Positions 292 through 15,127 of a stretch of 64,000 bases of DNA are shown piece after piece. Where the stretch lies: NCBI GenBank assembly GCA_903831305.1, contig CAIKXE010000011.1:12002-76001 (forward strand), in the 5' to 3' direction. Each line of letters starts with the position of its first letter. Within the stretch, counting starts at the first letter, position 1. The notes below the pieces were generated by a model. That model worked only from the letters and a program-made list of their open reading frames with translations, had not been told where the DNA came from and searched no databases. A program made the position numbers and the translations under genes. The stretch comes from an uncultured bacterium. GTDB lineage: Bacteria; Patescibacteriota; Minisyncoccia; Phycocordibacterales; GWA1-40-21.

Positions 292-1188
292 TTAATCGTT
301 TGTGCTGTAGTGTGCCTTAAGATTCTCTACATGCTGGGATGGAGAGATATCCACGGTTTGGCATAGAAGGGATAGTTTTCCTATGATTAACAGGATACTT
401 TCTTCAGTTAGACGTCCTTGCTCGAACTTTTTGAAATATTGGATTAGATCATCTATCTGGAGTACTCCTTCTATTGGTGGTGTTTTTATTTCACAAGCTT
501 CAGTAAAGACAACGATGCTTTCAAAACTATTTTCGGGGATAGCCGGAAACAGCTCCTTTAGCGCCATTATATGGGACCAGTTTTGTCTGATGGGATTTTG
601 AAATTGAAACTTATTTTCTCCACCCGGCAATGACTGTGTCCAGCTCTCTTGGTCTTTGCTACCAAATATCCAACCTTTATAATCCTTGCTTTCAATTACA
701 AAAATTCCAAATTTTGATATAACAAGGTGGTCTATCTGCGAGGAACCATTATTAGTTGCCGGGATGATCAGATTGTTGAAAATATAGTAGTCTTTATAGT
801 TTAAGCCTTCAGCGAGAATATCAGCCACTTCTTGTTCACCCCAGGATAGACCTTTAGTATAACACCGACTTGTGTGCTTTCTATAATTAATTTCGGCAAT
901 ATCTTCCGTCTTTGGATTAGCGGGTATTGATTCTGTATTATATGCGGCGCTCCATCCCAAAATCTTTCTTATGATTTTGACTATTAGGAAAACAATTACA
1001 AATAAAATACCGAGGGAGAAGATAGCACCAATAAATACTCCAGGTGAAGAGGTAAAAAATCCAATCAACAACAAAGAACCGACAAAGACAAATATGGGTT
1101 TTATCATTGAATCATCTCTTGAATTACGATATGCCGATCGGCGTAAATAATATGAACCTCTTTTTCTGTAGTTGTGAAAGTAACCCAT
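292..1188 (-). CDS. NERD-domain (nuclease-related domain) protein with N-terminal membrane anchor
   Basis: Hydrophobic N-terminal helices (IFVFVGSLLLIGFF, LGILFVIVFLIV). The C-terminal region ...IDHLVISKFGIFVIESKDYKGWIFG... resembles NERD-family proteins (family assignment from memory of the fold). Confidence 0.55.
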   Translation of the reverse strand: MGYFHNYRKRGSYYLRRSAYRNSRDDSMIKPIFVFVGSLLLIGFFTSSPGVFIGAIFSLGILFVIVFLIVKIIRKILGWSAAYNTESIPANPKTEDIAEINYRKHTSRCYTKGLSWGEQEVADILAEGLNYKDYYIFNNLIIPATNNGSSQIDHLVISKFGIFVIESKDYKGWIFGSKDQESWTQSLPGGENKFQFQNPIRQNWSHIMALKELFPAIPENSFESIVVFTEACEIKTPPIEGVLQIDDLIQYFKKFEQGRLTEESILLIIGKLSLLCQTVDISPSQHVENLKAHYSTND

Positions 1189-2152: not shown

Positions 2153-3949
2153 ATGCAAAAATATACAGTTAATCAGTATTTTGTAAGCAATATATTAAAT
2201 TGGGTTCAAGAAAAGGAAATAGCGATCCCCGAGATTCAGCGACCATTCGTTTGGGATTCAGTGAAGGTCCGTGATTTAATGGACTCTTTATATAAAGGTT
2301 TTCCTATCGGATATATTATTGCGTGGAAGAACCCTGATGTTCGCTTGAAAGATGGAACTATATCAGGTGGTAAAAAAGTATTAATTGATGGCCAGCAACG
2401 CATTACGGCACTTAGGGCGGCGGTTCTTGGTCAAAATATAGTAAATACTGATTACAAAGAAGGACGTATTTATATTGCCTTCCACCCAATTACCGAAGAG
2501 TTCGCAACACTTACACCGGCTATCGAAAAGGACAAGGCTTGGATTCCAGATATTTCTAAGTTAATGACTAAAGATGGCGGACTCTTTCAGGATGTTACAA
2601 ATTATTGTGAAAAAAATCCTGAAGTAAGCAGAGATCTTATAGAAAGGAATATAGAAAAATTACTTCAGATTAAGAGTAAGCAAGTTGGATTTATTGAACT
2701 TGATTCAAATTTGGACATTGAGACGGTCACAGAAATATTTATTCGCATTAACTCCAAAGGGGTAGTCTTAAGTCAGGCGGATTTTGCCATGTCCAAGATT
2801 GCCTCATATGACAATGAAGATAATTTTGGAGTGAACTTAAGAAAGTGTATTGATTATTTCTGTCACCTTTCTCGTGAACCGCATTTTTATAAATACATAA
2901 GTGAGAACGACCAGGAGTTCAGTAAGACCCAGTATCTTTCCAAGATAGCCTGGCTTAAAGATGAAAATGATGATCTGTATGATCCTGATTACTCAGACGT
3001 ATTAAGAGTTAGTTTTACAAAACAGTTTGAAAGAGGAAAGATGGCTGACCTGGTAGGATTACTTTCGGGAAGGAATTTTGAAACAAGGAGTTTTGAGCAA
3101 TCAATAATGGACGAGTCGTTTCAGAAGTTAAGCATGGCTCTATTGGACTTCGTAAACGAAACATATTTTAAAGATTTTGTGATGGCTATCAAGTCCTCCG
3201 GTTTTATAAGCAAGGATTTGGTCAATTCACAAAATACCTTAAACTTTGCATATATTTTATATCTCAAGCTTAGAGAAAAAGGCGTAAACAGGGATGAGAT
3301 TAAACGATTAGTTTCAAGGTGGTTCGTGATGTCTTTATTGACCGGCAGATATTCTGGTTCACCAGAGAGTAAGTTTGATTTTGACATCAAACAGATTTCA
3401 AAGGATGGCGCTGATAAGGTGTTAAAAGCAATTGAGGATGCGGAGCTATCTGATGCTTATTGGAATTTTGGCTTGGTCCAGGCGCTCGATAAGGCTACTA
3501 TAAATAGCCCCTTTCTGAACCTGTTCTTTGCTGCTCAAATTAAGGCTAATGACAGAGGCTTCTTGTCCACGGACATAACGGTGGGAAGCATGATTGAGCA
3601 CAGAGGTGATATACATCATCTATTCCCAAGGGATTATTTGAAATCTAAAGGCTTAGAGCGCGGTGAATATAATCAAATTGCAAACTTTGTGTATGCTCAG
3701 TCGGAAATTAATATCAATATTGGAAACAAAACACCGAAGGGCTACATGCTAGATGTCATTGAGCAGACAATGGGCGGCAAATCAAAGTATGGAGGAATTG
3801 ATAATAAAGAGATTCTGATTGAAAATCTAAGACAGAACTGTATCCCTGAAGGTTTTGAGAAAATGGAAGTCGGTGATTATGAAAATTTTCTTAAAGATAG
3901 GCGTAAGTTGATGGCAAAGAAGATAGAGGGGTATTATAAGAGTTTGTAA
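2153..3949 (+). CDS. GmrSD-family DUF262/DUF1524 protein (type IV restriction-like; ParB-like NTPase/nuclease N-domain + HNH/His-Me C-domain)
   Basis: N-terminal DUF262 hallmarks IPEIQRPFVW and LIDGQQRITAL. C-terminal DUF1524-like HHLFPRDYL. Confidence 0.8.
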   Translation: MQKYTVNQYFVSNILNWVQEKEIAIPEIQRPFVWDSVKVRDLMDSLYKGFPIGYIIAWKNPDVRLKDGTISGGKKVLIDGQQRITALRAAVLGQNIVNTDYKEGRIYIAFHPITEEFATLTPAIEKDKAWIPDISKLMTKDGGLFQDVTNYCEKNPEVSRDLIERNIEKLLQIKSKQVGFIELDSNLDIETVTEIFIRINSKGVVLSQADFAMSKIASYDNEDNFGVNLRKCIDYFCHLSREPHFYKYISENDQEFSKTQYLSKIAWLKDENDDLYDPDYSDVLRVSFTKQFERGKMADLVGLLSGRNFETRSFEQSIMDESFQKLSMALLDFVNETYFKDFVMAIKSSGFISKDLVNSQNTLNFAYILYLKLREKGVNRDEIKRLVSRWFVMSLLTGRYSGSPESKFDFDIKQISKDGADKVLKAIEDAELSDAYWNFGLVQALDKATINSPFLNLFFAAQIKANDRGFLSTDITVGSMIEHRGDIHHLFPRDYLKSKGLERGEYNQIANFVYAQSEININIGNKTPKGYMLDVIEQTMGGKSKYGGIDNKEILIENLRQNCIPEGFEKMEVGDYENFLKDRRKLMAKKIEGYYKSL

Positions 3950-3957
3950 TTGTAATT

Positions 3958-6900
3958 ATGTCTAAAGAGCCTAGAAAAACAAATAAATCTAACGATATAA
4001 ATGAAACTTTTTCATACGGTGTAGTTTATGTTTATTCTATTCCGGACGAAAAACATAAGGGGCGTTTAAAAATCGGTAGTGCAACTATAACTTCAGCCAA
4101 GTCAACTCAAGATGACGTCAATTTAGCTGCTGAAGAGCGAATACAGCAACAAACAAAAACGGCTGATATTTCTTATGTACTTGAGCATGCAGAGCTCGCT
4201 ATTACAAATGACAACTGTTTTTTCCGTGATCATGATGTTCATGAAGTTCTCAAGCGATCAGGTTATGAACGTAAAACAGAGAATGTTAAAAATGCACACT
4301 CGGAGTGGTTTGAAGTTAGTTTAGACGTTGCAAAGAAAGCAATTCAAGCTGTAAAAGAAGGGCGAACAGCATTAATGACTGGAGAAAAAATTGCTCCCAA
4401 GACTTCTGAATTTTCTTTTCGTCCAAACCAGCGCGAAGCGATTGATAAAACTATCAGAGCCATTAAGAAAAATCGCAAACATTTTCTTTGGAATGCAAAG
4501 ATGCGTTTCGGTAAAACATCAGCGGCTATGCAAGTGGCTAAAGAGAATGAAATGAAAAGAGTCATTATCGTCACTCATCGCCCTAGCGTAAGTGTTGATT
4601 GGTACGATGACTTCAACAAAGTATTTATTGGCACAAACTATGAATACTCTTCAAAAACAAAAGGCTTAAATATAAGTACCCTCATGAAAGGTGACAAACC
4701 TTTTGTTTATTTTGCATCTTTACAAGATTTACGCTTATCAAAACGGGTAGTAGAGGATGGGTCCGCTGGATCTAAGGCTGCAGGATTTGATAAAAATGAT
4801 GAAGTTTTTGATACAACCTGGGACATGCTAATTATTGATGAAGCCCATGAGGGAACACAAAGTAATCTCGGGGATGCTACTTTTTTAAAGATACCAACAA
4901 ACTTTACGCTACAGCTTTCCGGCACACCTTTTAATATTCTACATAAGCACGAAGAAGAAGATATATACACCTGGGACTATGTAATGGAACAGGAAGCAAA
5001 GCTCAATTGGGACGAGCGCAATCCCGGAGTACCAAACCCTTATGCTGAACTACCAGCTCTGAGTATTTTTACTTACGACATAGATACATTTGCTAGCCAT
5101 ATTGGTAAATTAGGCGAAGGTTTTCATGATTCCTTAGACGGTGCTTTTAAATTCCATGAGTTTTTCCGTGTACAAAAAGATAATGAGGGTAATGATACTG
5201 CTGAGTTTGTCCATGAGCCGATGGTTAAGAAGTTCTTAGATTTATTGGCTGATGATAAGTTAAAGACAAAATTCCCATACGCGACAGAAGAATACCGTAA
5301 CTATAACAAGCATTCCCTCTGGTTATTACCGAATCGTGTCAAAGTTATTGAAGCAATGGAGAAATTGCTTAAGGACCACCAGATTTTTGGTTCTAATCAA
5401 TTTGGCGTTGTAAATATTTCTGGAGATAGTCGTGATGATGAAGAAGATAAAGACGCCAAGGATCGCGTTACCAAGGCAATTAAAAATTATGACTATACAA
5501 TAACACTAACAGGTCAACGTCTCACAACTGGGGCATCTGTTCCTGAATGGACAGCAATCTTTATGATGTCTGACACAAACTCTGCCACTACCTACTTACA
5601 GACAGCTTTTAGATGTCAAACTCCAGCAAGAATAGATGGTAAGCTAAAAACACAAGGATATGTATTTGATTTTGCTCCAGATCGTACTTTGAAACTGGTC
5701 GCTGAGGCGATAGAGCTTAACCACAAATCAGGAAAGACTAATTCACCAGAACAGAAAGAAGCGATGAGACAATTTCTTAACTTCTGCCCAATTTTAGCCG
5801 CGGAGGGTGGAACAATGAAGCTATATGATGTGGGGAAAATGCTCGTTCAATTGAAAAAAGCCATTATTGAAAGGGTTAGCCGTAATGGTTTTGATGATCC
5901 TAAATTATACAACGATGAGTTGTTACGACTTGATGAGCTAGATGTAGCTAAGTTTAATGCGCTCAAAGCTATTGTTGGTAAATCTACTAGTGAAAGAATA
6001 AACGAAATTGAGATTAACAGTCTTGGTATGACTGATCTCCAAGCAAAGAAAGCAGAAGAAGCTGAACGTAAGAATAAACAAAAGAAAGAGCTATCAGAAG
6101 AAGAAAAGGAAAATTTGAAAAAATTAAAGGAAGCCCGTGAGCAGAAGCAGACGGCTATTAGTATATTACGCGCTGTGAGTATACGTATGCCGATGTTGGT
6201 ATATGGAGCAAATGTATCAATCCACGATGATATAACTTTGCAAAAGTTTATTGAGCTTGTTGATGAAGAGTCTTGGCAAGAGTTTATGCCGGTGGGACTA
6301 ACAAAAGAAAAGTTTAAGGAATTTACTAAATATTATGATGAGGAAGTATTTAAGGGGGTTGCTCACAGTATTCGGGCCAAAGCTTTTGATTGTGATGACC
6401 TCTTACCGACAGATAGAATACGCACAATTTCTGAAATATTCAGCACTTTTAAGAATCCAGACAAGGAAACCGTCCTAACACCTTGGAATGTGGTGAATAT
6501 GCATCTAACCAAAGCTTTTGGTGGCCATGATTTTTGTAGTGAGGTTATAGATAAAAAAGGAAAACCAGAATGGAAGAGTTATAATGTTGATACTAGTGTA
6601 TGGTCCCAGGACGACACAAAGATCCTTGAAATAAATTCAAAGTCTGGTTTGTATCCCTTGTTAGCATGTTATAATGTATATTCGAGACAGCTTAAGAATA
6701 GTAAAGAGAGAAATAAACTAGAAGAGAAGATATTTAGACAAGTATGGAATAAGGTTTTGGCGGATAATATTTTCGTGCTTTGTAAGAGTCCAATGGCTGT
6801 GAGTATCACAAGACGAACGCTTGCCGGATATAGCGGTGCTAGGACGAATATTATTTATATTAAGGACCTGGTTAATAAACTCCAACAGAAAGGTGGTTTT

Positions 6901-7974
6901 AAGGATTATAATTTAAAGAATGAATTATTAGAAAAGTTTAATTTAAAAGATAAAGATATGAAATTCACAGCCGCCGTAGGAAATCCCCCATATCAAATAC
7001 AAACTAAAGATACGAGTGATAATCCTGTCTACCATCTTTTTATGGATGAGTCTTACAAATTAGCAGATAAGGTTGCATTGATTCATCCAGCTCGTTTTTT
7101 ATTTAATGCCGGAAAGACTCCAAAAGAATGGAATAAAAAGATATTAAATGATAAGCATACTAAAGTCATTTTTTATGAACAGCAGTCGTCCAAGGTTTTC
7201 CCGAACACAGATATTAAAGGAGGGATTGCAATAACCTACCATGATATTAGTAAGGATTTTGGTAAAATTGGTTCATTTACTAGTCATCCTGAACTTAAAA
7301 CGATACAGGAGAAAGTCGAGAACCACGACAATTTTGCACCGCTGAGCGGAATGATATACCTACAGAACAAATTTAATCTTGATGCGTTATATAAAGATAA
7401 TCCATCGTTTAAAAAAATAATTGGAAGTAGTGGCAGAGAGAAACGTTTAACTTCTCCAATATTTGAACAACTTAATGTTTTTGTGGATAATCCAAAGCAC
7501 GATACAGATGTTAGAATTTTTGGTTTGATAAAAAATAATCGAACCTATAAATGGATAGGCAAAAACTATTTAGAAAAACATCCGAACTTAGAGAAGTATA
7601 AAGTCTTAGTTGCTAAGGCTAATGGAAGCGGGGCTCTTGGTGAGGTGCTCTCATCTCCTATTATCTGTGAACCTTTTACAGGTTTTACATTTAGTTTTAT
7701 CTCATTTGGCGCCTTTAATGATGAAGATGAAGCTCAAGCGGTTCTAAAATATATCAAAACAAAGTTTGCGCGAACTATGTTGGGAGTATTAAAAATTACA
7801 CAGGATAATCTTCCTAGGACTTGGTCAAAAGTTCCTCTTCAGAATTTCACTAATAAATCTGATATTGATTGGTCGAAATCTATTCCTGAGATAGATAAAC
7901 AACTGTATGCGAAATATGGTCTTGATAAAAAAGAAATAGACTTCATCGAGACACATGTGAAGCCTATGGTTTAA
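3958..7974 (+). CDS. fused T5orf172 (GIY-YIG-superfamily) domain - SF2/SNF2-like DEAH helicase - gamma-class N6-adenine DNA methyltransferase (Type ISP/IIG-like restriction-modification enzyme) with C-terminal putative target-recognition region
   Basis: N-terminus GVVYVYSIPD...GRLKIGSAT...HEVLKRSGYERK...EWFEV (T5orf172 pattern). Helicase motif I FGKTSAA, motif II LIIDEAHEG, motif III LSGTPF and Q/R motif TGQRLTTGAS. MTase motif X-like VLTPWNVVNM, motif I-like ILEINSKSGLYPLLA and motif IV AVGNPPYQ. About 330 aa follow NPPY. Confidence 0.8.
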   Translation: MSKEPRKTNKSNDINETFSYGVVYVYSIPDEKHKGRLKIGSATITSAKSTQDDVNLAAEERIQQQTKTADISYVLEHAELAITNDNCFFRDHDVHEVLKRSGYERKTENVKNAHSEWFEVSLDVAKKAIQAVKEGRTALMTGEKIAPKTSEFSFRPNQREAIDKTIRAIKKNRKHFLWNAKMRFGKTSAAMQVAKENEMKRVIIVTHRPSVSVDWYDDFNKVFIGTNYEYSSKTKGLNISTLMKGDKPFVYFASLQDLRLSKRVVEDGSAGSKAAGFDKNDEVFDTTWDMLIIDEAHEGTQSNLGDATFLKIPTNFTLQLSGTPFNILHKHEEEDIYTWDYVMEQEAKLNWDERNPGVPNPYAELPALSIFTYDIDTFASHIGKLGEGFHDSLDGAFKFHEFFRVQKDNEGNDTAEFVHEPMVKKFLDLLADDKLKTKFPYATEEYRNYNKHSLWLLPNRVKVIEAMEKLLKDHQIFGSNQFGVVNISGDSRDDEEDKDAKDRVTKAIKNYDYTITLTGQRLTTGASVPEWTAIFMMSDTNSATTYLQTAFRCQTPARIDGKLKTQGYVFDFAPDRTLKLVAEAIELNHKSGKTNSPEQKEAMRQFLNFCPILAAEGGTMKLYDVGKMLVQLKKAIIERVSRNGFDDPKLYNDELLRLDELDVAKFNALKAIVGKSTSERINEIEINSLGMTDLQAKKAEEAERKNKQKKELSEEEKENLKKLKEAREQKQTAISILRAVSIRMPMLVYGANVSIHDDITLQKFIELVDEESWQEFMPVGLTKEKFKEFTKYYDEEVFKGVAHSIRAKAFDCDDLLPTDRIRTISEIFSTFKNPDKETVLTPWNVVNMHLTKAFGGHDFCSEVIDKKGKPEWKSYNVDTSVWSQDDTKILEINSKSGLYPLLACYNVYSRQLKNSKERNKLEEKIFRQVWNKVLADNIFVLCKSPMAVSITRRTLAGYSGARTNIIYIKDLVNKLQQKGGFKDYNLKNELLEKFNLKDKDMKFTAAVGNPPYQIQTKDTSDNPVYHLFMDESYKLADKVALIHPARFLFNAGKTPKEWNKKILNDKHTKVIFYEQQSSKVFPNTDIKGGIAITYHDISKDFGKIGSFTSHPELKTIQEKVENHDNFAPLSGMIYLQNKFNLDALYKDNPSFKKIIGSSGREKRLTSPIFEQLNVFVDNPKHDTDVRIFGLIKNNRTYKWIGKNYLEKHPNLEKYKVLVAKANGSGALGEVLSSPIICEPFTGFTFSFISFGAFNDEDEAQAVLKYIKTKFARTMLGVLKITQDNLPRTWSKVPLQNFTNKSDIDWSKSIPEIDKQLYAKYGLDKKEIDFIETHVKPMV

Positions 7975-7977
7975 ATT

Positions 7978-8910
7978 ATGAAAGTCTCGACGCGTAATAT
8001 TGATATACTCGAAAACACGCTTCGTCGTACCGGTGATTTGCTGGATATTCTTCTATTGGACCGCACCACAAAAAAGAATATCATCTGGGCAACAGATTCA
8101 TATGAAAAACATGGCAGAGATTTTTTAGCTAAAACGAGAATCATGCCAGAATTGGTAACTGGTAAGTGTGGCTTGCTCATACAACCACGCGCTGCTAAAA
8201 GTTTGGATGAACAACGTCTACGCACTAAAGACAAGGCTGAGGTTTTTACACCATTAAAGATTGTAGATCAGATGAATAAAATGATTGAGACTGCTGACCA
8301 CAGTAGTCTGCCTAGTAAAAGTAATTGGCAAGAATACGTTCGTGAATTGAAGATTGAGATTACCTGCGGTGAGGCCCCCTTTATTGTTAGTCGCTATAAT
8401 CCAATTGCAAATACTCGCAAAATTATTAAATTAGATAGTCGCGTTGGTTTTTTAGATAGAAAATTGAAAATAGTATCTAAATATTGTCCTACGAAAAAAG
8501 AGTGGTTGTTTTGGGCAAAAGAAGCTTTTAGGGCAAGTTATGGCTATGAATGGCAGGGGGATAATGTGCTGCTTGCGCGTGAGAACTTGTTGTACACGCT
8601 TATTGACTATTACAAAGCTAAATTTAAAGAGAAACCATCTCTCAAGATACAAGAAGAATTTGCGGAAATTATAAGTTGGAATATATTCCAAATGGACGGC
8701 CTGCGGTACGTTATTCCTATGAGTTGCCATCATGAGAGCAGGGTTATTCCTAGTGTAGCTACGCTTTTTGGTGAAATACCAGGTAAGGTTGAGAAGAATG
8801 AATGTGAAGGCTGTAAGTATAATCGTCCAAATAAACACAACGGAAGACATGTCCAAATTATGGATTGGAGTAAGAATAAGGTAGTAAGGTTCGTGGATTT
8901 AATTAAATAA
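7978..8910 (+). CDS. MTase-like protein carrying HsdM/Eco57I-type motif X and motif I but no NPPY catalytic motif; C-terminal Cys/His cluster (putative Zn site)
   Basis: AEVFTPLKIVDQMNKMI matches the G-E-F-F-T-P-x-x-V motif X of gamma-class N6A MTases. EITCGEAPFIV resembles motif I. No (N/D/S)PP(Y/F) anywhere. C-terminal cluster CHHESR...NECEGCKYNRPNKHNGRH. Confidence 0.45.
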   Translation: MKVSTRNIDILENTLRRTGDLLDILLLDRTTKKNIIWATDSYEKHGRDFLAKTRIMPELVTGKCGLLIQPRAAKSLDEQRLRTKDKAEVFTPLKIVDQMNKMIETADHSSLPSKSNWQEYVRELKIEITCGEAPFIVSRYNPIANTRKIIKLDSRVGFLDRKLKIVSKYCPTKKEWLFWAKEAFRASYGYEWQGDNVLLARENLLYTLIDYYKAKFKEKPSLKIQEEFAEIISWNIFQMDGLRYVIPMSCHHESRVIPSVATLFGEIPGKVEKNECEGCKYNRPNKHNGRHVQIMDWSKNKVVRFVDLIK

Positions 8911-8992
8911 GACTAAAATTAGGGGCGTAATATATAAAGTATCCAGTAGTAGGTAGTTACGGCGGTTTAATGGAAAAAATAAGGAAACAAAT

Positions 8993-11900
8993 ATGAAGAC
9001 ATTTTTTTACAAAAATATTATTTTAAAAATAAAGAGCTTTTTTCAAAAGAAAGAAAGGTCCTTATTAGACATAGCAAATAGAGAAAAAAAGAATAATAAA
9101 GAACTAAAACGTATTGTTAAAAATAAACTTCCACCGCTATGGATGCCATCCGTTTCGTCCTTTCTAAGAATATTTTTTGTAATGATGTTTTTTTGGATAA
9201 TTTCACATCCAAAATATTTAGTAGAGTTAATACTTTCACCGTTACATAGTTTGTTTTTACACACACCATTTCTTAAAACGGTAGTTCCTTACATTATAAA
9301 AATGTTTAGCTTATTACCACATTCAATACCTATTATTAGCGAAGGTGGTAATTTATTAGCAGTTCACGCGGGTGTAGGATCTGTTTTGATTGGGTTAGCC
9401 TTTTTTGTTGCACAAAGTTTAACAGACAAGAGCGATTCTGAAAAATCTAGGGTGCTATTGTATAAAAGTTATTTTTTCCCCTTACTGGTAGCTGAGGTAA
9501 TGGCTTTCTTTTTCTTTATTGGAAAGACCAACGTCTTGGTATATATACCGATTGCAGGAATTGCTTTTTGGACTTTGTATTCTTTGGGTAAGGTAATAGA
9601 TATTCTTGTTAAAGAGTATAAAATGGAAGAAGCGAAAAAGAGAGTTCTTTTAAACGTAACAAAAGAGAATTTTATTAGAATATTAGATAGAGAAACAACA
9701 TATAGAATTGGTAATAATTTTATTTATAAAAAATATGAGAGTAGCGGGATTTTAGATGTCAATCCTTTTGGATTTTCCAGAGATAAAAAGACGGTGGTCA
9801 GAATAAAATCACAAAAAAGTGGTGCAATCGTGGATATTAAAATGAACGAGCTTGAGAGATTAATACTACTATTGAGTCAGGCGGTAAAAGTAGATTTTCC
9901 TATAGGAAATGCTGAGACAACTAACGATAATGGGGTCAAAGTTAAAAGTGAATCACTATGTTGTTTATTAACATTACTAGGTCATAAAATAGAATTAGAG
10001 CAGCCATTATTCGAGATCAAAAAAGAAATCGCTGATAAGATTGGTGTGAAAAGATTAGAAAAAATAATCGAGAGAGTGTTTTTAATAAAAGATGACATCT
10101 CAGAAGTTGAGGCACGTACCGAAGTTTTAAAATTAAAGGATAGGTGTATCCTAGCAATAAACAATCAACAAACAGGAGAATTAGAGAAGATAATAAAATT
10201 GTATGTCGAACTTGTTAATGAATTTTCTAAATATTTTAATTTGTATCATGGCGGATGTTTTTCGTCAGAACAAGCAAGACAGGAAAGAAACTCATTTTTT
10301 GAAAGACTTAAGCCTCTAGACTGGATATCAAAAGATATTAGAGAAATTTTTGATAGAGGGATAAATTCTGAAGATCTAAATATTATCAGAGATGTTGCCT
10401 ACTTGCCCATAATGCTGGTGCAACAAGCTATTGAAAGTAAAGACCATCTTATTTTTCAGGAATTCATACCTTATTCTTTGGTTCTGTACGAAAAAGCCTT
10501 TGATTTCTCAAAAAAAGATAGAGAAAAGGAATCAGAGATAATGTTTGATCGGACTTGGCGATATTTGAAGGAACTATCCGCATATTATCTCGAATCAAAA
10601 TTAAAGGAAGAAGATTACCCTGAGGGTGACTTTAAAGACTATTACATCCAGATACTTAAAATTTTACAGGCACTATTAAAGTCATCATTTGATAAGAAGG
10701 ATTTGACTAATTTTAATAAGTTCTTAAAAGTTACCTCAGATTTATTTAACAGATTAGATAGACCGTACTCAAATTCTTCTTATACTAATACTGAAAAAGT
10801 CTTTAATCTTCTAGACGGTAAACGTCAGGAAATGTTCTTTGGGGTTTCTAGTTGGATTTTATTTATCTTAAAGAACAATAAAGATCTCCAGGTCAGAGAA
10901 TTTTATAATGCAGTACAAAATGAATTACCTTCAGATATCATCGAATTCACAAGGGTGTTTTTACAATCTCATAGTTTTGATACCGAAGATCATTGGGGTT
11001 GGGATTGGTGGGAATCCAGGCCGGATGAGGGCGTACATACGATAAATGTACTTGAAAAACTTGAGCAATTCTTTGTGGTTAGACTATTGATATTATTAGG
11101 ATCAAAAAGTGACCAAGAAATTGAAAAAATTAGTTTACCTCATAATAGGGATTTAGCTTTTCTTGCCGAAGGAACAAGAGACGCAATCAAGATTATAGAT
11201 GATATTGAAAAAAACCCTGGTAATTGGACTTTTATTTTAGATAGCGAATCTGTAAAAAGATGTCTAGCATTACGTAATCTACTTAAAAAAGCACATGATC
11301 AGCAGGAACAAGATGATTTAAGGTGTAAACGTGAAGCTGATATTTCAAGAGATAAAGTTGAAAAATTTAAGAAGTATTTTATTGAAAATTATAAACAGAG
11401 TCATCCAATCAAAGAGATGTTAAAAGACTTTGGTCTTCTTTCAAATAAAACCAATAAAAAAGTTGGAAAAGAGATAAAAAAACTGGGAATTAATACTTTG
11501 TTTGATAAAGGTGCTTTTTTGGGTGATGAGGTCAATTGGTACATTCATTATACGGGAATTAAAGAAGCTTTTGGTTTTGGTAGGAGTATGGTTTATGGTG
11601 AGAATGAATATGTTCTTGGAAAAATCAGAGGTAAAGCTAAAGAAATAACAGAAGATAGGTTTGAAAATACTTTGGCGGGGATCCAATTATCTAACATCGT
11701 CCTTATTGCTACAAACCATGCTGTATGGAAGTTCTTTGAGAGATCAAATAGTAATTGGATACCTAAGTGGCATAGCGAATTTCCTAAAGAGCTCTTCGGT
11801 AATCAAATAATTGAAGGTGTCTACAGATTTAAAGATAAAATCATTCCGGTCTATCAGCTATTTACTTCAGGTTCTAGTAGTTCAGATATCTTTATTTTAG

Positions 11901-12190
11901 ATAAAACTAAAATTGGGAAATTGGTACAATTTTCTCCACTTGAGGATGGTGATAGTACAGATGTATTGTTCGATGTTTTCCTTATAGATGTTCAGGAATT
12001 TATTTTAAACTCTACCTTAATTACCGAATTTATTGATAAGCCTCCACAGTGGCTGTCGGATATTGGTAATAAAGAGAAACAGATTGAACATCTGCAAGAG
12101 TGTGTTTTGATTCATGTCTTTGAAAAAATTCAATTTAAACTTCACAATGAATTTAGTGGGTATATATTACTAACAGATAAGATAAAATAA
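8993..12190 (+). CDS. large (1065 aa) hypothetical protein, N-terminal multi-pass membrane region plus ~850-aa predicted cytoplasmic alpha-rich domain; no recognisable catalytic motif
   Basis: Hydrophobic segments LRIFFVMMFFWIISHP, VLIGLAFFVAQSL, VAEVMAFFFFIG and IPIAGIAFWTLYSLG in the first ~200 aa. The remainder is K/E-rich with no Walker A, HxK or PD-(D/E)xK motif seen. Confidence 0.6.
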   Translation: MKTFFYKNIILKIKSFFQKKERSLLDIANREKKNNKELKRIVKNKLPPLWMPSVSSFLRIFFVMMFFWIISHPKYLVELILSPLHSLFLHTPFLKTVVPYIIKMFSLLPHSIPIISEGGNLLAVHAGVGSVLIGLAFFVAQSLTDKSDSEKSRVLLYKSYFFPLLVAEVMAFFFFIGKTNVLVYIPIAGIAFWTLYSLGKVIDILVKEYKMEEAKKRVLLNVTKENFIRILDRETTYRIGNNFIYKKYESSGILDVNPFGFSRDKKTVVRIKSQKSGAIVDIKMNELERLILLLSQAVKVDFPIGNAETTNDNGVKVKSESLCCLLTLLGHKIELEQPLFEIKKEIADKIGVKRLEKIIERVFLIKDDISEVEARTEVLKLKDRCILAINNQQTGELEKIIKLYVELVNEFSKYFNLYHGGCFSSEQARQERNSFFERLKPLDWISKDIREIFDRGINSEDLNIIRDVAYLPIMLVQQAIESKDHLIFQEFIPYSLVLYEKAFDFSKKDREKESEIMFDRTWRYLKELSAYYLESKLKEEDYPEGDFKDYYIQILKILQALLKSSFDKKDLTNFNKFLKVTSDLFNRLDRPYSNSSYTNTEKVFNLLDGKRQEMFFGVSSWILFILKNNKDLQVREFYNAVQNELPSDIIEFTRVFLQSHSFDTEDHWGWDWWESRPDEGVHTINVLEKLEQFFVVRLLILLGSKSDQEIEKISLPHNRDLAFLAEGTRDAIKIIDDIEKNPGNWTFILDSESVKRCLALRNLLKKAHDQQEQDDLRCKREADISRDKVEKFKKYFIENYKQSHPIKEMLKDFGLLSNKTNKKVGKEIKKLGINTLFDKGAFLGDEVNWYIHYTGIKEAFGFGRSMVYGENEYVLGKIRGKAKEITEDRFENTLAGIQLSNIVLIATNHAVWKFFERSNSNWIPKWHSEFPKELFGNQIIEGVYRFKDKIIPVYQLFTSGSSSSDIFILDKTKIGKLVQFSPLEDGDSTDVLFDVFLIDVQEFILNSTLITEFIDKPPQWLSDIGNKEKQIEHLQECVLIHVFEKIQFKLHNEFSGYILLTDKIK

Positions 12191-12193
12191 TTT

Positions 12194-13696
12194 ATGAAGC
12201 CCATATCCAAATCTCTATTCCTTCAATACTTAATCTGTCCTAAAGACGCGTGGTTTAGGCTGCACCAGCCGGACCTGGAGGAATTTAATGTCTCCTTTTC
12301 GGACCAAAATGTGATGGCCCAGGGTAATGTGGTGGAGGATTGTGCTAAGAAACTTAAGATATTCTCCGGTTTTGTGGAAGTCAAAAGCCGGGCTTTCTCG
12401 GCCAGCAAGGAGATAGACAAGCTGATTGCTGAAGAAGTACCAGCAATCTATCAGCCAACCTTCAGCGTTGATGGTTTTATAATCCGCTGTGACTTTCTGG
12501 TTTGGAATGCCAAAACCAAGAAATGGGACTTATACGAGGTTAAAGGTACAAATTCCAAGAAGGATGACGATGGACCGCGGGACCATATCTCTGATCTAGC
12601 TTTCCAAACAATTGTGCTGGAGCGATACGGTCTTAGCATCGGTAGTAAATATATTGTTCATTTGAACAAAGAATACGTTAGGGGTAAGGAGCTGGATGTT
12701 GAAGAACTCTTTGTTATTAATGATAGCACCGAGCAGGTAGAACTAAAGAAAGCTACTACCGATGCGCAGATGGAGAAAGCTAAGGCGTATTTGAATCAAG
12801 AGGATGAGCCTAAAGACGGCTGTAACTGTCATTTATTAGGTAGAAGTAATCATTGTGAGACATTTAAGAAATCACACCCCGAGATACCGGATTATTCCGT
12901 CCATGATATATCCAGGATAGGTTCAACGCCTGATAAGCTGATTCAACTGGTCAAGAACGGTATCTATCATCTCCACGAAGCGGAAGACATATCTGATTTT
13001 ACCATTCCCCAACAAAACCAGATTCAGGCCCATAAGACAAAGAAAGAGATAATTGTCAGAGAAGAAATTGCTAATATTCTGGACAATTATACCTATCCGC
13101 TGTACTTCTTTGATTATGAGACCTTTGCACCTGCCGTGCCTATCTATGAAGGATTTAGCTCATATCAGCGTATACCAATCCAATTTTCCTTGCATATTAT
13201 TGAAAAGATGGCCGGACCTGTCCGTCATCTGGACTATCTTCACCTAGAGAATACTGACCCTTCAGAAACTGTTGCTAAGATGCTAGGCGAGGTCATAGAT
13301 CCTAAAGGAACAGTCCTGGCCTGGAATGTCTCTTTTGAGAAAGGCGTTACATCGGAGATAGCGGAAAGACTGCCTAAGTATGAGCCGGTGATAACGAGGA
13401 TTTGTGGCCAGATGAGAGACCTTCGGGATATTTTTTCCCAGCAGCATTATGTCCATAAGGATTTTAAAGGGAAAACCTCAATTGAAGCTGTTATGAACGT
13501 GTTATTGCCAGATATGACTTATGATCATTTACCATATACTGGTAGTGATGTGGGTTTTGTCTGGTGGAATGATATAGTCAATCAAGGTAAGGAACCTTCT
13601 GAAAGGGAGGAGAAGATACATCTAATCCGGGAATACTGTAAACAAGATACTTTTGTAATGGTGGAGATTTTTAGAATATTGAATAGTATTATATAA
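12194..13696 (+). CDS. two-domain nuclease: Cas4/RecB-like PD-(D/E)xK domain with Fe-S Cys cluster + DnaQ-like DEDDy 3'-5' exonuclease domain (DUF2779-like architecture)
   Basis: The Cys arrangement C15...CNCHLLGRSNHC (C-x-C-x8-C) matches Cas4/AddB Fe-S clusters. PD-(D/E)xK-like ...DGFIIRCDFLVW...WDLYEVKG. Exo I YFFDYETFAP, Exo II-like AWNVSFEKG and Exo III YCKQDTF. Confidence 0.65.
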   Translation: MKPISKSLFLQYLICPKDAWFRLHQPDLEEFNVSFSDQNVMAQGNVVEDCAKKLKIFSGFVEVKSRAFSASKEIDKLIAEEVPAIYQPTFSVDGFIIRCDFLVWNAKTKKWDLYEVKGTNSKKDDDGPRDHISDLAFQTIVLERYGLSIGSKYIVHLNKEYVRGKELDVEELFVINDSTEQVELKKATTDAQMEKAKAYLNQEDEPKDGCNCHLLGRSNHCETFKKSHPEIPDYSVHDISRIGSTPDKLIQLVKNGIYHLHEAEDISDFTIPQQNQIQAHKTKKEIIVREEIANILDNYTYPLYFFDYETFAPAVPIYEGFSSYQRIPIQFSLHIIEKMAGPVRHLDYLHLENTDPSETVAKMLGEVIDPKGTVLAWNVSFEKGVTSEIAERLPKYEPVITRICGQMRDLRDIFSQQHYVHKDFKGKTSIEAVMNVLLPDMTYDHLPYTGSDVGFVWWNDIVNQGKEPSEREEKIHLIREYCKQDTFVMVEIFRILNSII

Positions 13697-14445: not shown

Positions 14446-14583
14446 ATGGATATGGATGATGAAGTATTTGAAAAAGCAAAAGAGGAGGATTTGACACTAG
14501 ATGAAGCTGAACAGCTTCAGGAGCTTGTCGACGAAACAGGTCTTGATGTTGATGAAGCTGAAGAACTTCGCCAGGAATTATAA
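14446..14583 (+). CDS. small (45 aa) highly acidic peptide, hypothetical
   Basis: Manual translation gives MDMDDEVFEKAKEEDLTLDEAEQLQELVDETGLDVDEAEELRQEL, about 40% D/E. It starts 2 nt after the upstream stop and ends 7 nt before the next ATG. Absent from the ORF track only because it is <60 aa. Confidence 0.4.
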   Translation: MDMDDEVFEKAKEEDLTLDEAEQLQELVDETGLDVDEAEELRQEL

Positions 14584-14590
14584 AAAAGTC

Positions 14591-15127
14591 ATGGGAGAAG
14601 AAAATAAACAAAAGTATATCAAGATATTAAAATTGGACCCAAACCTTGCTAGGACCGGTAGGTATACCAGGTCACTTGAAAAGTATCTTGAAAAGAATAA
14701 CCGGTCATTTAACATAGTAGACGGTAATTACATTGTCTATGTGTCTGATAAAAATGAGGCTATAAGAATAGGTTTTGAATTGAGAAAATATGAAATTGAG
14801 TATTTTGATGGTGTGGAATTATTACCCTTGGAACTTGAACCAAAAAGAATAAAAGGCGAACGAGCAAAAAGAGCGGCGCCAGATTCTTCCTCCGGTAAGA
14901 CAGTGACAGTTAGTCAGTTCATGAAAAAAACCAAACAAGATATCAAGCTAGATTGTTTAGTTAAGGCTGAAATAATCAAAAGGAAATTACTAACAAGAAA
15001 AGAAATGGAGACGGCTATATCTTGGGGGAAGTTAAAGACAATAAAGTTTAGAAATAAGGAGTATTTTGATCGTCAGGAAATATTTGATTACCTGAAAAGT
15101 AATTTTCGTTATGATACTGGAAACTAA
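14591..15127 (+). CDS. hypothetical protein with C-terminal excisionase/MerR-like helix-turn-helix
   Basis: The ORF track start at 14501 overlaps the small acidic ORF. The in-frame ATG at 14591 (MGEENKQ) follows its stop. The C-terminus TVTVSQFMKKTKQDIK...GKLKTIKFRNKEYFDRQEIFDYL resembles excisionase-family HTH (…GKLPxIKIGRRWRIxxxDLDEFL). Confidence 0.45.
   Translation: MGEENKQKYIKILKLDPNLARTGRYTRSLEKYLEKNNRSFNIVDGNYIVYVSDKNEAIRIGFELRKYEIEYFDGVELLPLELEPKRIKGERAKRAAPDSSSGKTVTVSQFMKKTKQDIKLDCLVKAEIIKRKLLTRKEMETAISWGKLKTIKFRNKEYFDRQEIFDYLKSNFRYDTGN

Follow-up and report, generated by a model that had tools for sequence, protein, structure and literature searches.

What is the role of a protein that resembles one half of a DNA methyltransferase (MTase) and is encoded directly behind an MTase gene? 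The question is raised by a 310-amino-acid (aa) open reading frame (7978..8910, + strand) in the window, the whole 64-kb stretch of DNA analysed here. The original prediction had pointed to its resemblance to MTase motifs X and I, to a missing catalytic motif IV and to its start 3 nt after an upstream MTase gene, and had proposed a SAM-sensing regulatory subunit, a second-specificity adaptor or a split or permuted MTase remnant.

Domain content and conservation of the small protein

The open reading frame is real, and the peptides that had suggested motifs X and I were located in it. The N-terminal domain (aa 1–85; 7978..8232, +), delimited with alignments A1, A3 and A4, is kept in fused MTases of 650 aa and missing from minimal partners of 230 aa. 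Motif X follows as AEVFTPLKIVDQMNKMI (aa 87–103; 8236..8286, +), in which E88 and T91 are invariant and AEVFTP (aa 87–92) aligns with motif X of the large protein encoded upstream and of an N6_Mtase-positive partner. The segment containing beta1 and motif I, LKIEITCGEAPFIV (aa 124–137; 8347..8388, +), has invariant E127, C130, G131, E132 and P134. Within it, EITCGEAPFIV (residues 127–137) is a variant of (D/E)xxxGxGxF whose last (second) Gly is Ala in the window lineage (CGEAP); the motif aligns with FLEPAAGDGNFL of a minimal partner (LEITCGEAPF against LEPAAGDGNF), with beta1 predicted at 125–128. Motifs II and III were assigned by alignment together with the predicted model. The beta2 and motif II region, SYGYEWQGDNVLLAREN (aa 187–203; 8536..8586, +), is defined by a DSSP strand at 187–191 and by conservation; E191, at the end of the strand (SYGYE), is the candidate ribose-binding acid, and G194 and D195 are invariant. 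The segment containing beta3 and motif III, SWNIFQMDGL (aa 233–242; 8674..8703, +; strand 236–238), contains invariant N235, Q238 and M239, and D240 (IFQMDG) is conserved in ≥90%. R155, G157, K162, R201 and P247 are also invariant, and all of these invariances hold in stand-alone and fused relatives.

Beyond beta3 lies a beta-rich Cys/His insertion (aa 249–291; 8722..8850, +), modelled as strands 253–274 and a helix at 277–281. Its cluster (residues 250–291) comprises C250-x-H252 and C276-x2-C279, the latter at the start of this short helix, and is conserved in close homologues as a candidate treble-clef-like or zinc-ribbon-like site. The C-terminal cluster noticed at the outset is thus present; it is an optional insertion after beta3 rather than a defining feature, being retained without its Cys ligands in the Enterococcus faecium and Pediococcus pRS5 partners (282–306 aa) and missing entirely from the 230-aa partners. 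The chain terminates after this insertion, with no motifs V–VIII (beta5–beta7) or TRD found in it. A search for motif IV, (N/D/S)PP(Y/F/W/H), likewise found none in the 310 aa, as had been read from the sequence at first sight, and none in full-length stand-alone representatives; in fused relatives NPPY starts ~15–60 aa beyond the point where the 310-aa protein terminates. Given that the NPPY catalytic half and TRD are missing, the small protein is unable to methylate DNA alone.

Structure prediction, which had been proposed as a check for a SAM-binding-type fold, produced a confident AF2 model (pLDDT 93.3, pTM 0.91) from a diverse 91-sequence alignment (A3); 33 close homologues yielded a pLDDT of only 54.7. 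The model runs from an N-terminal helical region through the motif X helix, beta1, helices, beta2, two long helices and beta3 to a beta-rich C-terminal sub-domain. It matches the Type ISP enzyme LlaBIII best (168 residues aligned; match score 9.9), followed by three Type I HsdM chains (8.4–8.8), CamA (7.7), DrdV (7.2), BsaXI (6.8), PglX (6.7), MmeI (6.2) and BpuSI (5.7). Every one of these listed matches is a gamma-class adenine MTase and therefore, judging from the model, the small protein is a stand-alone SAM-binding N-terminal half (here the 'module') of an Eco57I/HsdM-type (gamma-class) N6-adenine DNA MTase, and the likeness to MTase motifs pointed out originally is genuine. Scanning the small protein against Pfam and NCBIfam yielded no match, Eco57I and N6_Mtase included, and the PADLOC REBASE-derived profile PDLC03390 ('MTase_II') matched it with E 7e-92. 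PDB sequence searches with the small protein, the C-terminal 571 aa of the large protein and the fused protein P0129 found no match, nor did a PDB profile search with the fused-MTase alignment A2.

The small-protein family is large. More than 7,500 clusters at 90% identity were scored, of which the best 120 (CPR bacteria, Planctomycetes and Saprospiraceae) are 73–91% identical, 303–326 aa long and free of Pfam domains; at 50% identity, searching the representatives exhaustively with HMMER gave 1,630 clusters. Members from the candidate phyla radiation (CPR), Gammaproteobacteria and Bacteroidota share ~75% identity. Purifying selection on the gene is strong (dN/dS 0.05–0.13), and length is uniform (305–360 aa) across hundreds of species, with no frameshifts. 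NCBI/RefSeq names a few homologues 'restriction endonuclease' or 'restriction endonuclease subunit M'.

The large partner protein and gene linkage

The upstream gene (3958..7974, +) encodes a 1,338-aa protein (Pfam T5orf172, ResIII and Eco57I; PADLOC REase_MTase_IIG) that consists, in order, of a T5orf172 nuclease-like domain, an SF2 helicase, a coupler, its own MTase N-half, an NPPY half, a TRD and a tail. The T5orf172 domain (GIY-YIG-like; 4027..4353, +; PF10544, E 1.1e-7) is the presumed nuclease; no Mrr-family nuclease domain of the LlaGI type was found, the N terminus matching T5orf172/MUG113 instead. The helicase (ResIII, E 2e-16) has the Walker A sequence 'RFGKT' (4504..4518, +; KMRFGKTSAAM, aa 181–191), and the MTase region matches Eco57I (PF07669, E 1.8e-22). 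The MTase N-half of the large protein, which we call NHALF2 (6448..6951, +), carries KETVLTPWNVVNMHL (motif X), KILEINSKSGLYPLL (motif I), NIFVLCKSPMA at the motif II position, without an acid, and NIIYIKDL (motif III). It runs through a canonical alphaC and a ~4-residue linker into beta4 and motif IV, MKFTAAVGNPPYQ (6958..6996, +), where the catalytic half starts at the sole GNPPYQ coding site in the window. Aligning the module family with NHALF2 by hhalign recovered motif X alone (19 columns, probability 64%, 65 sequences) and nothing with 5 sequences; with the match limited to motif X, the two are at best very distant paralogues. The 348-aa stand-alone PADLOC profile PDLC03375 ('MTase_II') matches aa 999–1337. 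Between loci, large proteins share ~75% identity outside the hypervariable residues ~1100–1250, which correspond to the TRD (aa 1101–1254; 7258..7719, +; defined by column identity across 4 loci): 16–28% of TRD columns are identical across the 4 loci, against 56–90% in most other parts.

These features—a large polypeptide with helicase motifs, a gamma MTase and a TRD—are those of Type ISP-like restriction–modification (RM) enzymes, and its sequence places the 1,338-aa protein in their uncharacterised RFGKT subgroup. The grouping derives from a list of LlaGI-like helicase-containing single-polypeptide RM enzymes, selected as REBASE Type IIG entries of >150 kDa and divided by GTGKT or RFGKT (Table 1 of Smith 2009, PMC2790903). 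LlaGI and LlaBIII are in the GTGKT group, and the 'RFGKT subgroup' has 14 members, among them PpeRS5ORF3P and Lbr367ORF22P; treatment of the RFGKT group was deferred in the companion paper. PpeRS5ORF3P and Lbr367ORF22P are the pRS5 and L. brevis homologues of our large protein, both with small partners. The searchable literature containing 'RFGKT' mentions no partner for these enzymes. Of 65 related large proteins, 63 have RFGK(T/S), as do 57 of 57 helicase subunits from the sister architecture described below.

The two genes of the window are joined by TAA-ATT-ATG (7972..7980, +), confirming the 3-nt spacer noted originally; 3–4-nt spacing or overlap is found in most related loci, which suggests translational coupling. 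A GTDB scan with one genome per species gave at least 581 small-protein matches. Among the best 80 of these, at least 70 have a large gene next to the small one and in the same orientation, upholding the link between the two, and the genes are mostly a few nucleotides apart or overlapping. The loci were collected through the small gene, so the counts describe small-gene-bearing loci. The large gene comes first in 24 loci, the more similar ones (CPR, Gammaproteobacteria and Bacteroidota), and the small gene in 46 (gut Clostridia, Bacteroidales, Treponema and others). Eight of the ten loci without a detected large gene are short of flanking sequence, leaving only L023 and L036 as informative exceptions with ample flank. 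The pair is retained down to 41–43% identity, and linkage spans 41–91%. The small gene lies directly behind a gene for a 1,320–1,345-aa T5orf172/ResIII/Eco57I protein in the window, in a Saprospiraceae genome, on a metagenome scaffold and in another MAG; these four contexts are unrelated, and the remaining neighbours differ. Pairing also recurs in metagenome loci and isolate plasmids, and two proteins are fusions of the pair: P0225 joins the module to residues 26–860 of the large protein, and P0230 joins it to the coupler–MTase–TRD part. Since the small gene is nearly always beside the large one, this 'single-polypeptide' branch probably has a second subunit, and the conserved partner gene argues against the single-polypeptide sufficiency of RFGKT enzymes.

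The window is a low-GC chromosomal region, where the pair sits in a ~15-kb defence island (NERD, SNase, GmrSD, the small/large pair, a 1,065-aa unknown and DUF2779) followed by housekeeping genes. GmrSD was rejected as a component of the system, being adjacent in just 6 of ~85 loci from the genome scan and first look and in 0 of 81 fused-MTase loci. The downstream 1,065-aa and DUF2779 genes were rejected likewise, as they are not conserved beside the pair. A DUF262 gene lies beside the pair on the E. faecium plasmid.

Fused, three-gene and minimal relatives

Many representatives of 630–717 aa contain the whole module, often with the Cys/His insertion, followed by an NPPY half. FDxVIGNPPYQ lies within ~15–60 residues of the module, and is succeeded by the rest of the Eco57I-type catalytic domain, a TRD and the C-terminal tail of the window's large protein (residues 324–665 of P0146 are 46.5% identical to large-protein residues 1001–1337). 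A metagenome scan seeded with fused MTases, with loci classified by home-made HMMs, recovered ~56 complete loci in which the gene directly behind that of a Mod-like fused MTase encodes a ~1,100-aa T5orf172–helicase protein. The fused module–NPPY protein is the only complete MTase in these loci; the helicase subunit has an orphan NHALF2 at its extreme C terminus (signature xxIFTPxxVV, (F)xDLYMKSGLY, VYGLAPT and FD(A/S)L), its chain stopping where beta4 would begin. In fused and orphan NHALF2 alike, TP (100%), D/E (100%), Lys (97–98%), Gly (98–100%) and the motif III Asp (75–98%) are conserved, and no variant has an acidic residue at the motif II position.

Six genuine three-gene loci (L107, L109, L110, L113, L119 and L128) encode, in order, the module, an NPPY half with TRD (333–360 aa) and a helicase–NHALF2 protein. 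The split falls exactly before beta4, with a stop codon, an SD-like sequence and an ATG (or an ATGA overlap), and the separate NPPY/TRD halves start at 'M..KFD.VIGNPPYQ'. The existence of a separate 348-aa PADLOC profile agrees with a separately encoded NPPY half, and a Bifidobacterium longum plasmid has the same three genes with IS256 inserted. From the fused, sister and three-gene forms, each system thus has two non-identical SAM-binding halves and one catalytic/TRD half, the single catalytic/TRD half being joined to either N-half or standing alone. As the NPPY/TRD half is a separate polypeptide in the three-gene loci, assembly of N-half and C-half in trans occurs in the family. The alphaC–beta4 linker is ~4–5 aa in both the large protein and fused MTases such as P0129, so the covalently attached N-half probably forms the catalytic fold, which would make the other N-half the orphan in every architecture.

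Plasmids of lactic-acid bacteria carry further reduced partners. A tblastn search of PLSDB found the small module in 17 records and a relative of the large protein in 88; in two unmatched records that were inspected, the partner is an N-6 DNA methylase too diverged for tblastn. On Lactococcus cremoris pUC047G and L. brevis ATCC 367 plasmid 2, a 230–236-aa 'N-6 DNA methylase' replaces the small gene. It matches only positions ~20–103 of Pfam N6_Mtase, above the gathering score, and aligns to module residues 80–244 (hhalign probability 98.5%, E 2.6e-15). These partners begin at motif X and carry a canonical motif I (FLEPAAGDGNFL or FLEPSAGEGAFL), YGIE (II) and G(N/D)TL (III); the N-terminal domain, the Cys/His insertion and NPPY are all missing. 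The SAM-binding half is exactly what all partners share, and the conserved core is therefore the putative SAM site.

Function of the proposed second subunit and comparison with known systems

On balance, we lean towards the small protein being an obligate, non-catalytic, SAM-binding second subunit of the adjacent 1,338-aa ATP-dependent RM protein. The reading draws on fold and homology, purifying selection, gene linkage in both orders, fusion proteins and sister architectures, from which we infer physical complex formation, SAM binding and a regulatory role. The small subunit would be co-translated with the large one and bind it, most likely at the MTase/TRD end; it would then bind SAM through the conserved pocket of motifs X, I, II and III and serve as a second 'M-like' protomer in a pseudo-dimeric MTase core, by analogy with the M2 and Mod2 cores of Type I and Type III enzymes. 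In that position it may tie SAM occupancy, DNA clamping or both to the choice between methylation on the one hand and translocation and cleavage on the other. The SAM-sensing regulatory subunit proposed originally is thus the version we favour, with SAM binding and regulation as its predicted elements. A non-catalytic protomer is favoured because the covalently attached N-half, here NHALF2, probably forms the catalytic fold. Points that speak against this reading are the Ala in place of the last motif I Gly in the window lineage, the less canonical NHALF2, the three-gene loci, the smaller number of PLSDB records with the module than with a relative of the large protein, and the loci L023 and L036.

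The arrangement could instead be a trans-complementing split MTase, the main rival though rather unlikely, in which the SAM half of the small protein packs, permanently or in a single functional state, on the large protein's NPPY/TRD half and NHALF2 is a degenerate structural or docking domain. Assembly of this kind is what the ~56 related loci would resemble, with the module fused straight to an NPPY half and an orphan NHALF2 left on the helicase subunit; the six three-gene loci with a separate NPPY/TRD half and the separate stand-alone PADLOC profiles for each half point the same way. SAM residues are also more canonical in the small protein and its minimal relatives than in NHALF2, whose motif I loop carries a conserved Lys and whose motif II position is without an acid. 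Against this, alphaC and a ~4-aa linker join NHALF2 to beta4 with no obvious room for a second N-half, and the TP, D/E, G and D of NHALF2 are 75–100% conserved whether it is fused or orphan, which is what a working SAM site would show. M.TaqI likewise lacks the first Gly of motif I.

More speculatively, and with a small chance of being right, one NPPY/TRD 'cassette' might engage either SAM-binding half (helicase-tethered or free and Mod-like), with the choice of partner switching between a methylating state and a restriction-licensing or SAM-sensing state; the GNPPYQ beta4 boundary would then be a cassette-swap recombination point, comparable to the Prevotella inverton. No inverton or second NPPY cassette was found in the 64-kb window.

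Two further readings fare poorly. That the small protein is a restriction endonuclease, or a DNA-binding or specificity subunit, would suit the RefSeq product names and a Cys/His cluster that could bind DNA; we consider it very improbable, as the protein has no recognisable nuclease fold or motif and, contrary to the proposed second-specificity adaptor, no hypervariable segment was found in it, the hypervariable TRD sitting in the large protein. A decaying remnant of an M.Eco57I-like companion MTase, with the catalytic half lost and no present function, would fit both a domain content equal to the N-terminal half of 650-aa fused MTases and the Eco57I system, in which an RM fusion is accompanied by a separate MTase (M.Eco57I), but is effectively refuted by the selection data (dN/dS 0.05–0.13), a uniform length of 305–360 aa without frameshifts, invariant SAM-site residues, ~75% identity across phyla and linkage retained in two gene orders at 41–91% identity. 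What stands of the 'split MTase remnant' is therefore the split, in evolutionary terms, as documented by relatives with fused or separate NPPY halves.

With the small protein read as a second subunit, the system resembles several known ones in part. It shares with Eco57I-type Type IIG systems an Eco57I domain and a second MTase-like gene beside an RM fusion; unlike in those systems, the companion has no catalytic half or TRD and the large enzyme is ATP-dependent and helicase-containing. Compared with Type I HsdM and Type III Mod2 cores, the second 'protomer' is a SAM-binding half alone and the two N-halves are non-identical paralogues; moreover, the MTase is gamma-class, in contrast to the beta-class MTase of Type III Mod. 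M.AquI alpha/beta and M.EcoHK31I alpha/beta are naturally split C5-cytosine MTases with one copy of each part. As in these, two polypeptides share the parts of an MTase fold (in the three-gene relatives, the split lies exactly at the alphaC/beta4 boundary), whereas the present system has two alternative N-halves for one C-half within a helicase–nuclease system. LlaGI functions as one polypeptide (PMC2790903) and differs in Walker A (RFGK(T/S) in the window), in its Mrr nuclease (T5orf172-like here), in that motifs I and II of the window's large-protein MTase are atypical, and in having no counterpart to the extra conserved half-MTase subunit, which was previously unreported. DnmA–YeeB–YeeC (PMC9973331) similarly combines a gamma MTase, an SF2 helicase and T5orf172 in a conserved cluster, but there the proteins are separate and full-length, the MTase is a complete MmeI-type enzyme and a half-MTase subunit is missing. 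Neither it nor MANTIS/Gao_RL identifies the present system, both being different systems according to the literature.

The components are of known kinds (a Type ISP-like RM enzyme and a gamma MTase), and REBASE evidently lists these pieces as putative MTases. The orphan half-MTase subunit and the arrangement of two N-halves with one C-half were not found in the searched literature, beside which unpublished or subscription-only accounts may exist. Names assigned by annotation pipelines—'restriction endonuclease', 'subunit M' and 'Type II methyltransferase'—are all misleading for these proteins.

The RFGKT branch was set aside in 2009, and the searchable literature holds no later characterisation of it. 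On the present evidence it is very widespread, with representatives in CPR bacteria, Bacteroidota, Clostridia, Gammaproteobacteria and dairy and enterococcal plasmids. The sequence data indicate that this branch is not single-polypeptide and carries an extra half-methyltransferase; expression of an RFGKT enzyme without its small gene may therefore fail. If the half-subunit senses SAM or completes a catalytic site in trans, it would represent a new form of coupling between modification and restriction and, in addition, a natural example of a Rossmann-fold MTase built from interchangeable parts.

Putative SAM site of the large protein

The 1338-aa large protein, which joins T5orf172, helicase, methyltransferase (MTase) and target-recognition (TRD) domains, carries its own motif I loop at aa 888–902 (window 6619–6663), in which the Lys of (S/M)KSG is approximately 98% conserved. 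At the motif II position of the same N-half (aa 937–947; window 6766–6798), the acidic residue is absent from every variant. Given the motif I Lys and the acid-free motif II, SAM binding by the large protein could be altered or absent.

Genes flanking the pair

Upstream of the pair (the large gene and the small gene, which encodes the 310-aa half-MTase predicted to bind SAM), a GmrSD (DUF262-type) Type IV restriction gene (window 2153–3949, + strand) stops 8 nt short of the large gene and lies back to back with NERD-domain and staphylococcal-nuclease-domain genes (window 292–1188 and 1190–2032, both − strand). GmrSD/DUF262 relatives also flank the pair at five related loci (L001, L031, L048, L050 and L085) and on an E. 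faecium plasmid; this neighbour is missing from most loci of the pair. Downstream lies a 1065-aa ORF (window 8993–12190, + strand) for which Pfam, NCBIfam and PADLOC gave no match; after a gap of 3 nt comes a gene for a 500-aa DUF2779/Cas4-like nuclease protein (window 12194–13696, + strand). The adjacency of these two genes to the pair is not kept at other loci, and they possibly form an independent two-gene defence module. Further downstream, an unannotated 208-aa ORF (window 14501–15127) contains both copies of a 26-nt direct repeat (85%; window 14798–14823 and 15059–15084, 261 nt apart).

Possibly mobile or rearranged relatives

The fold of the half-MTase was matched in BFVD by A0A8S5M309 and A0A8S5TY28 (E = 2.8e-11; TM 0.84 on the target), phage-encoded ‘N-6 DNA methylase’ proteins of 173–199 aa that are either fragments or half-MTases borne by phages. 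On Bifidobacterium longum plasmid p1, from a cultured isolate, the order half-MTase gene, IS256 transposase, NPPY-half (catalytic half) gene and helicase subunit (L181:5860–12675) is a three-gene or disrupted version of the system.

In a Prevotella metagenome-assembled genome (L063), one arm of a 44-nt inverted repeat (84%; L063:6926–6969 and 8973–9016) coincides exactly with the IGNPPYQ codons of the large gene, and the other sits 2 kb downstream on an inverted, promoterless NPPY-half and TRD cassette. This arrangement looks like an inverton through which specificity cassettes are exchanged at motif IV. No counterpart of the repeat exists in the window. Where the small gene precedes the large gene, a tyrosine recombinase (Phage_integrase) gene of approximately 200 aa was found immediately 5′ of the small gene (L010:2511–3125, L011:1120–1734, L012:3269–3868 and L013:1009–1623), and this recombinase may serve in phase variation of the system.
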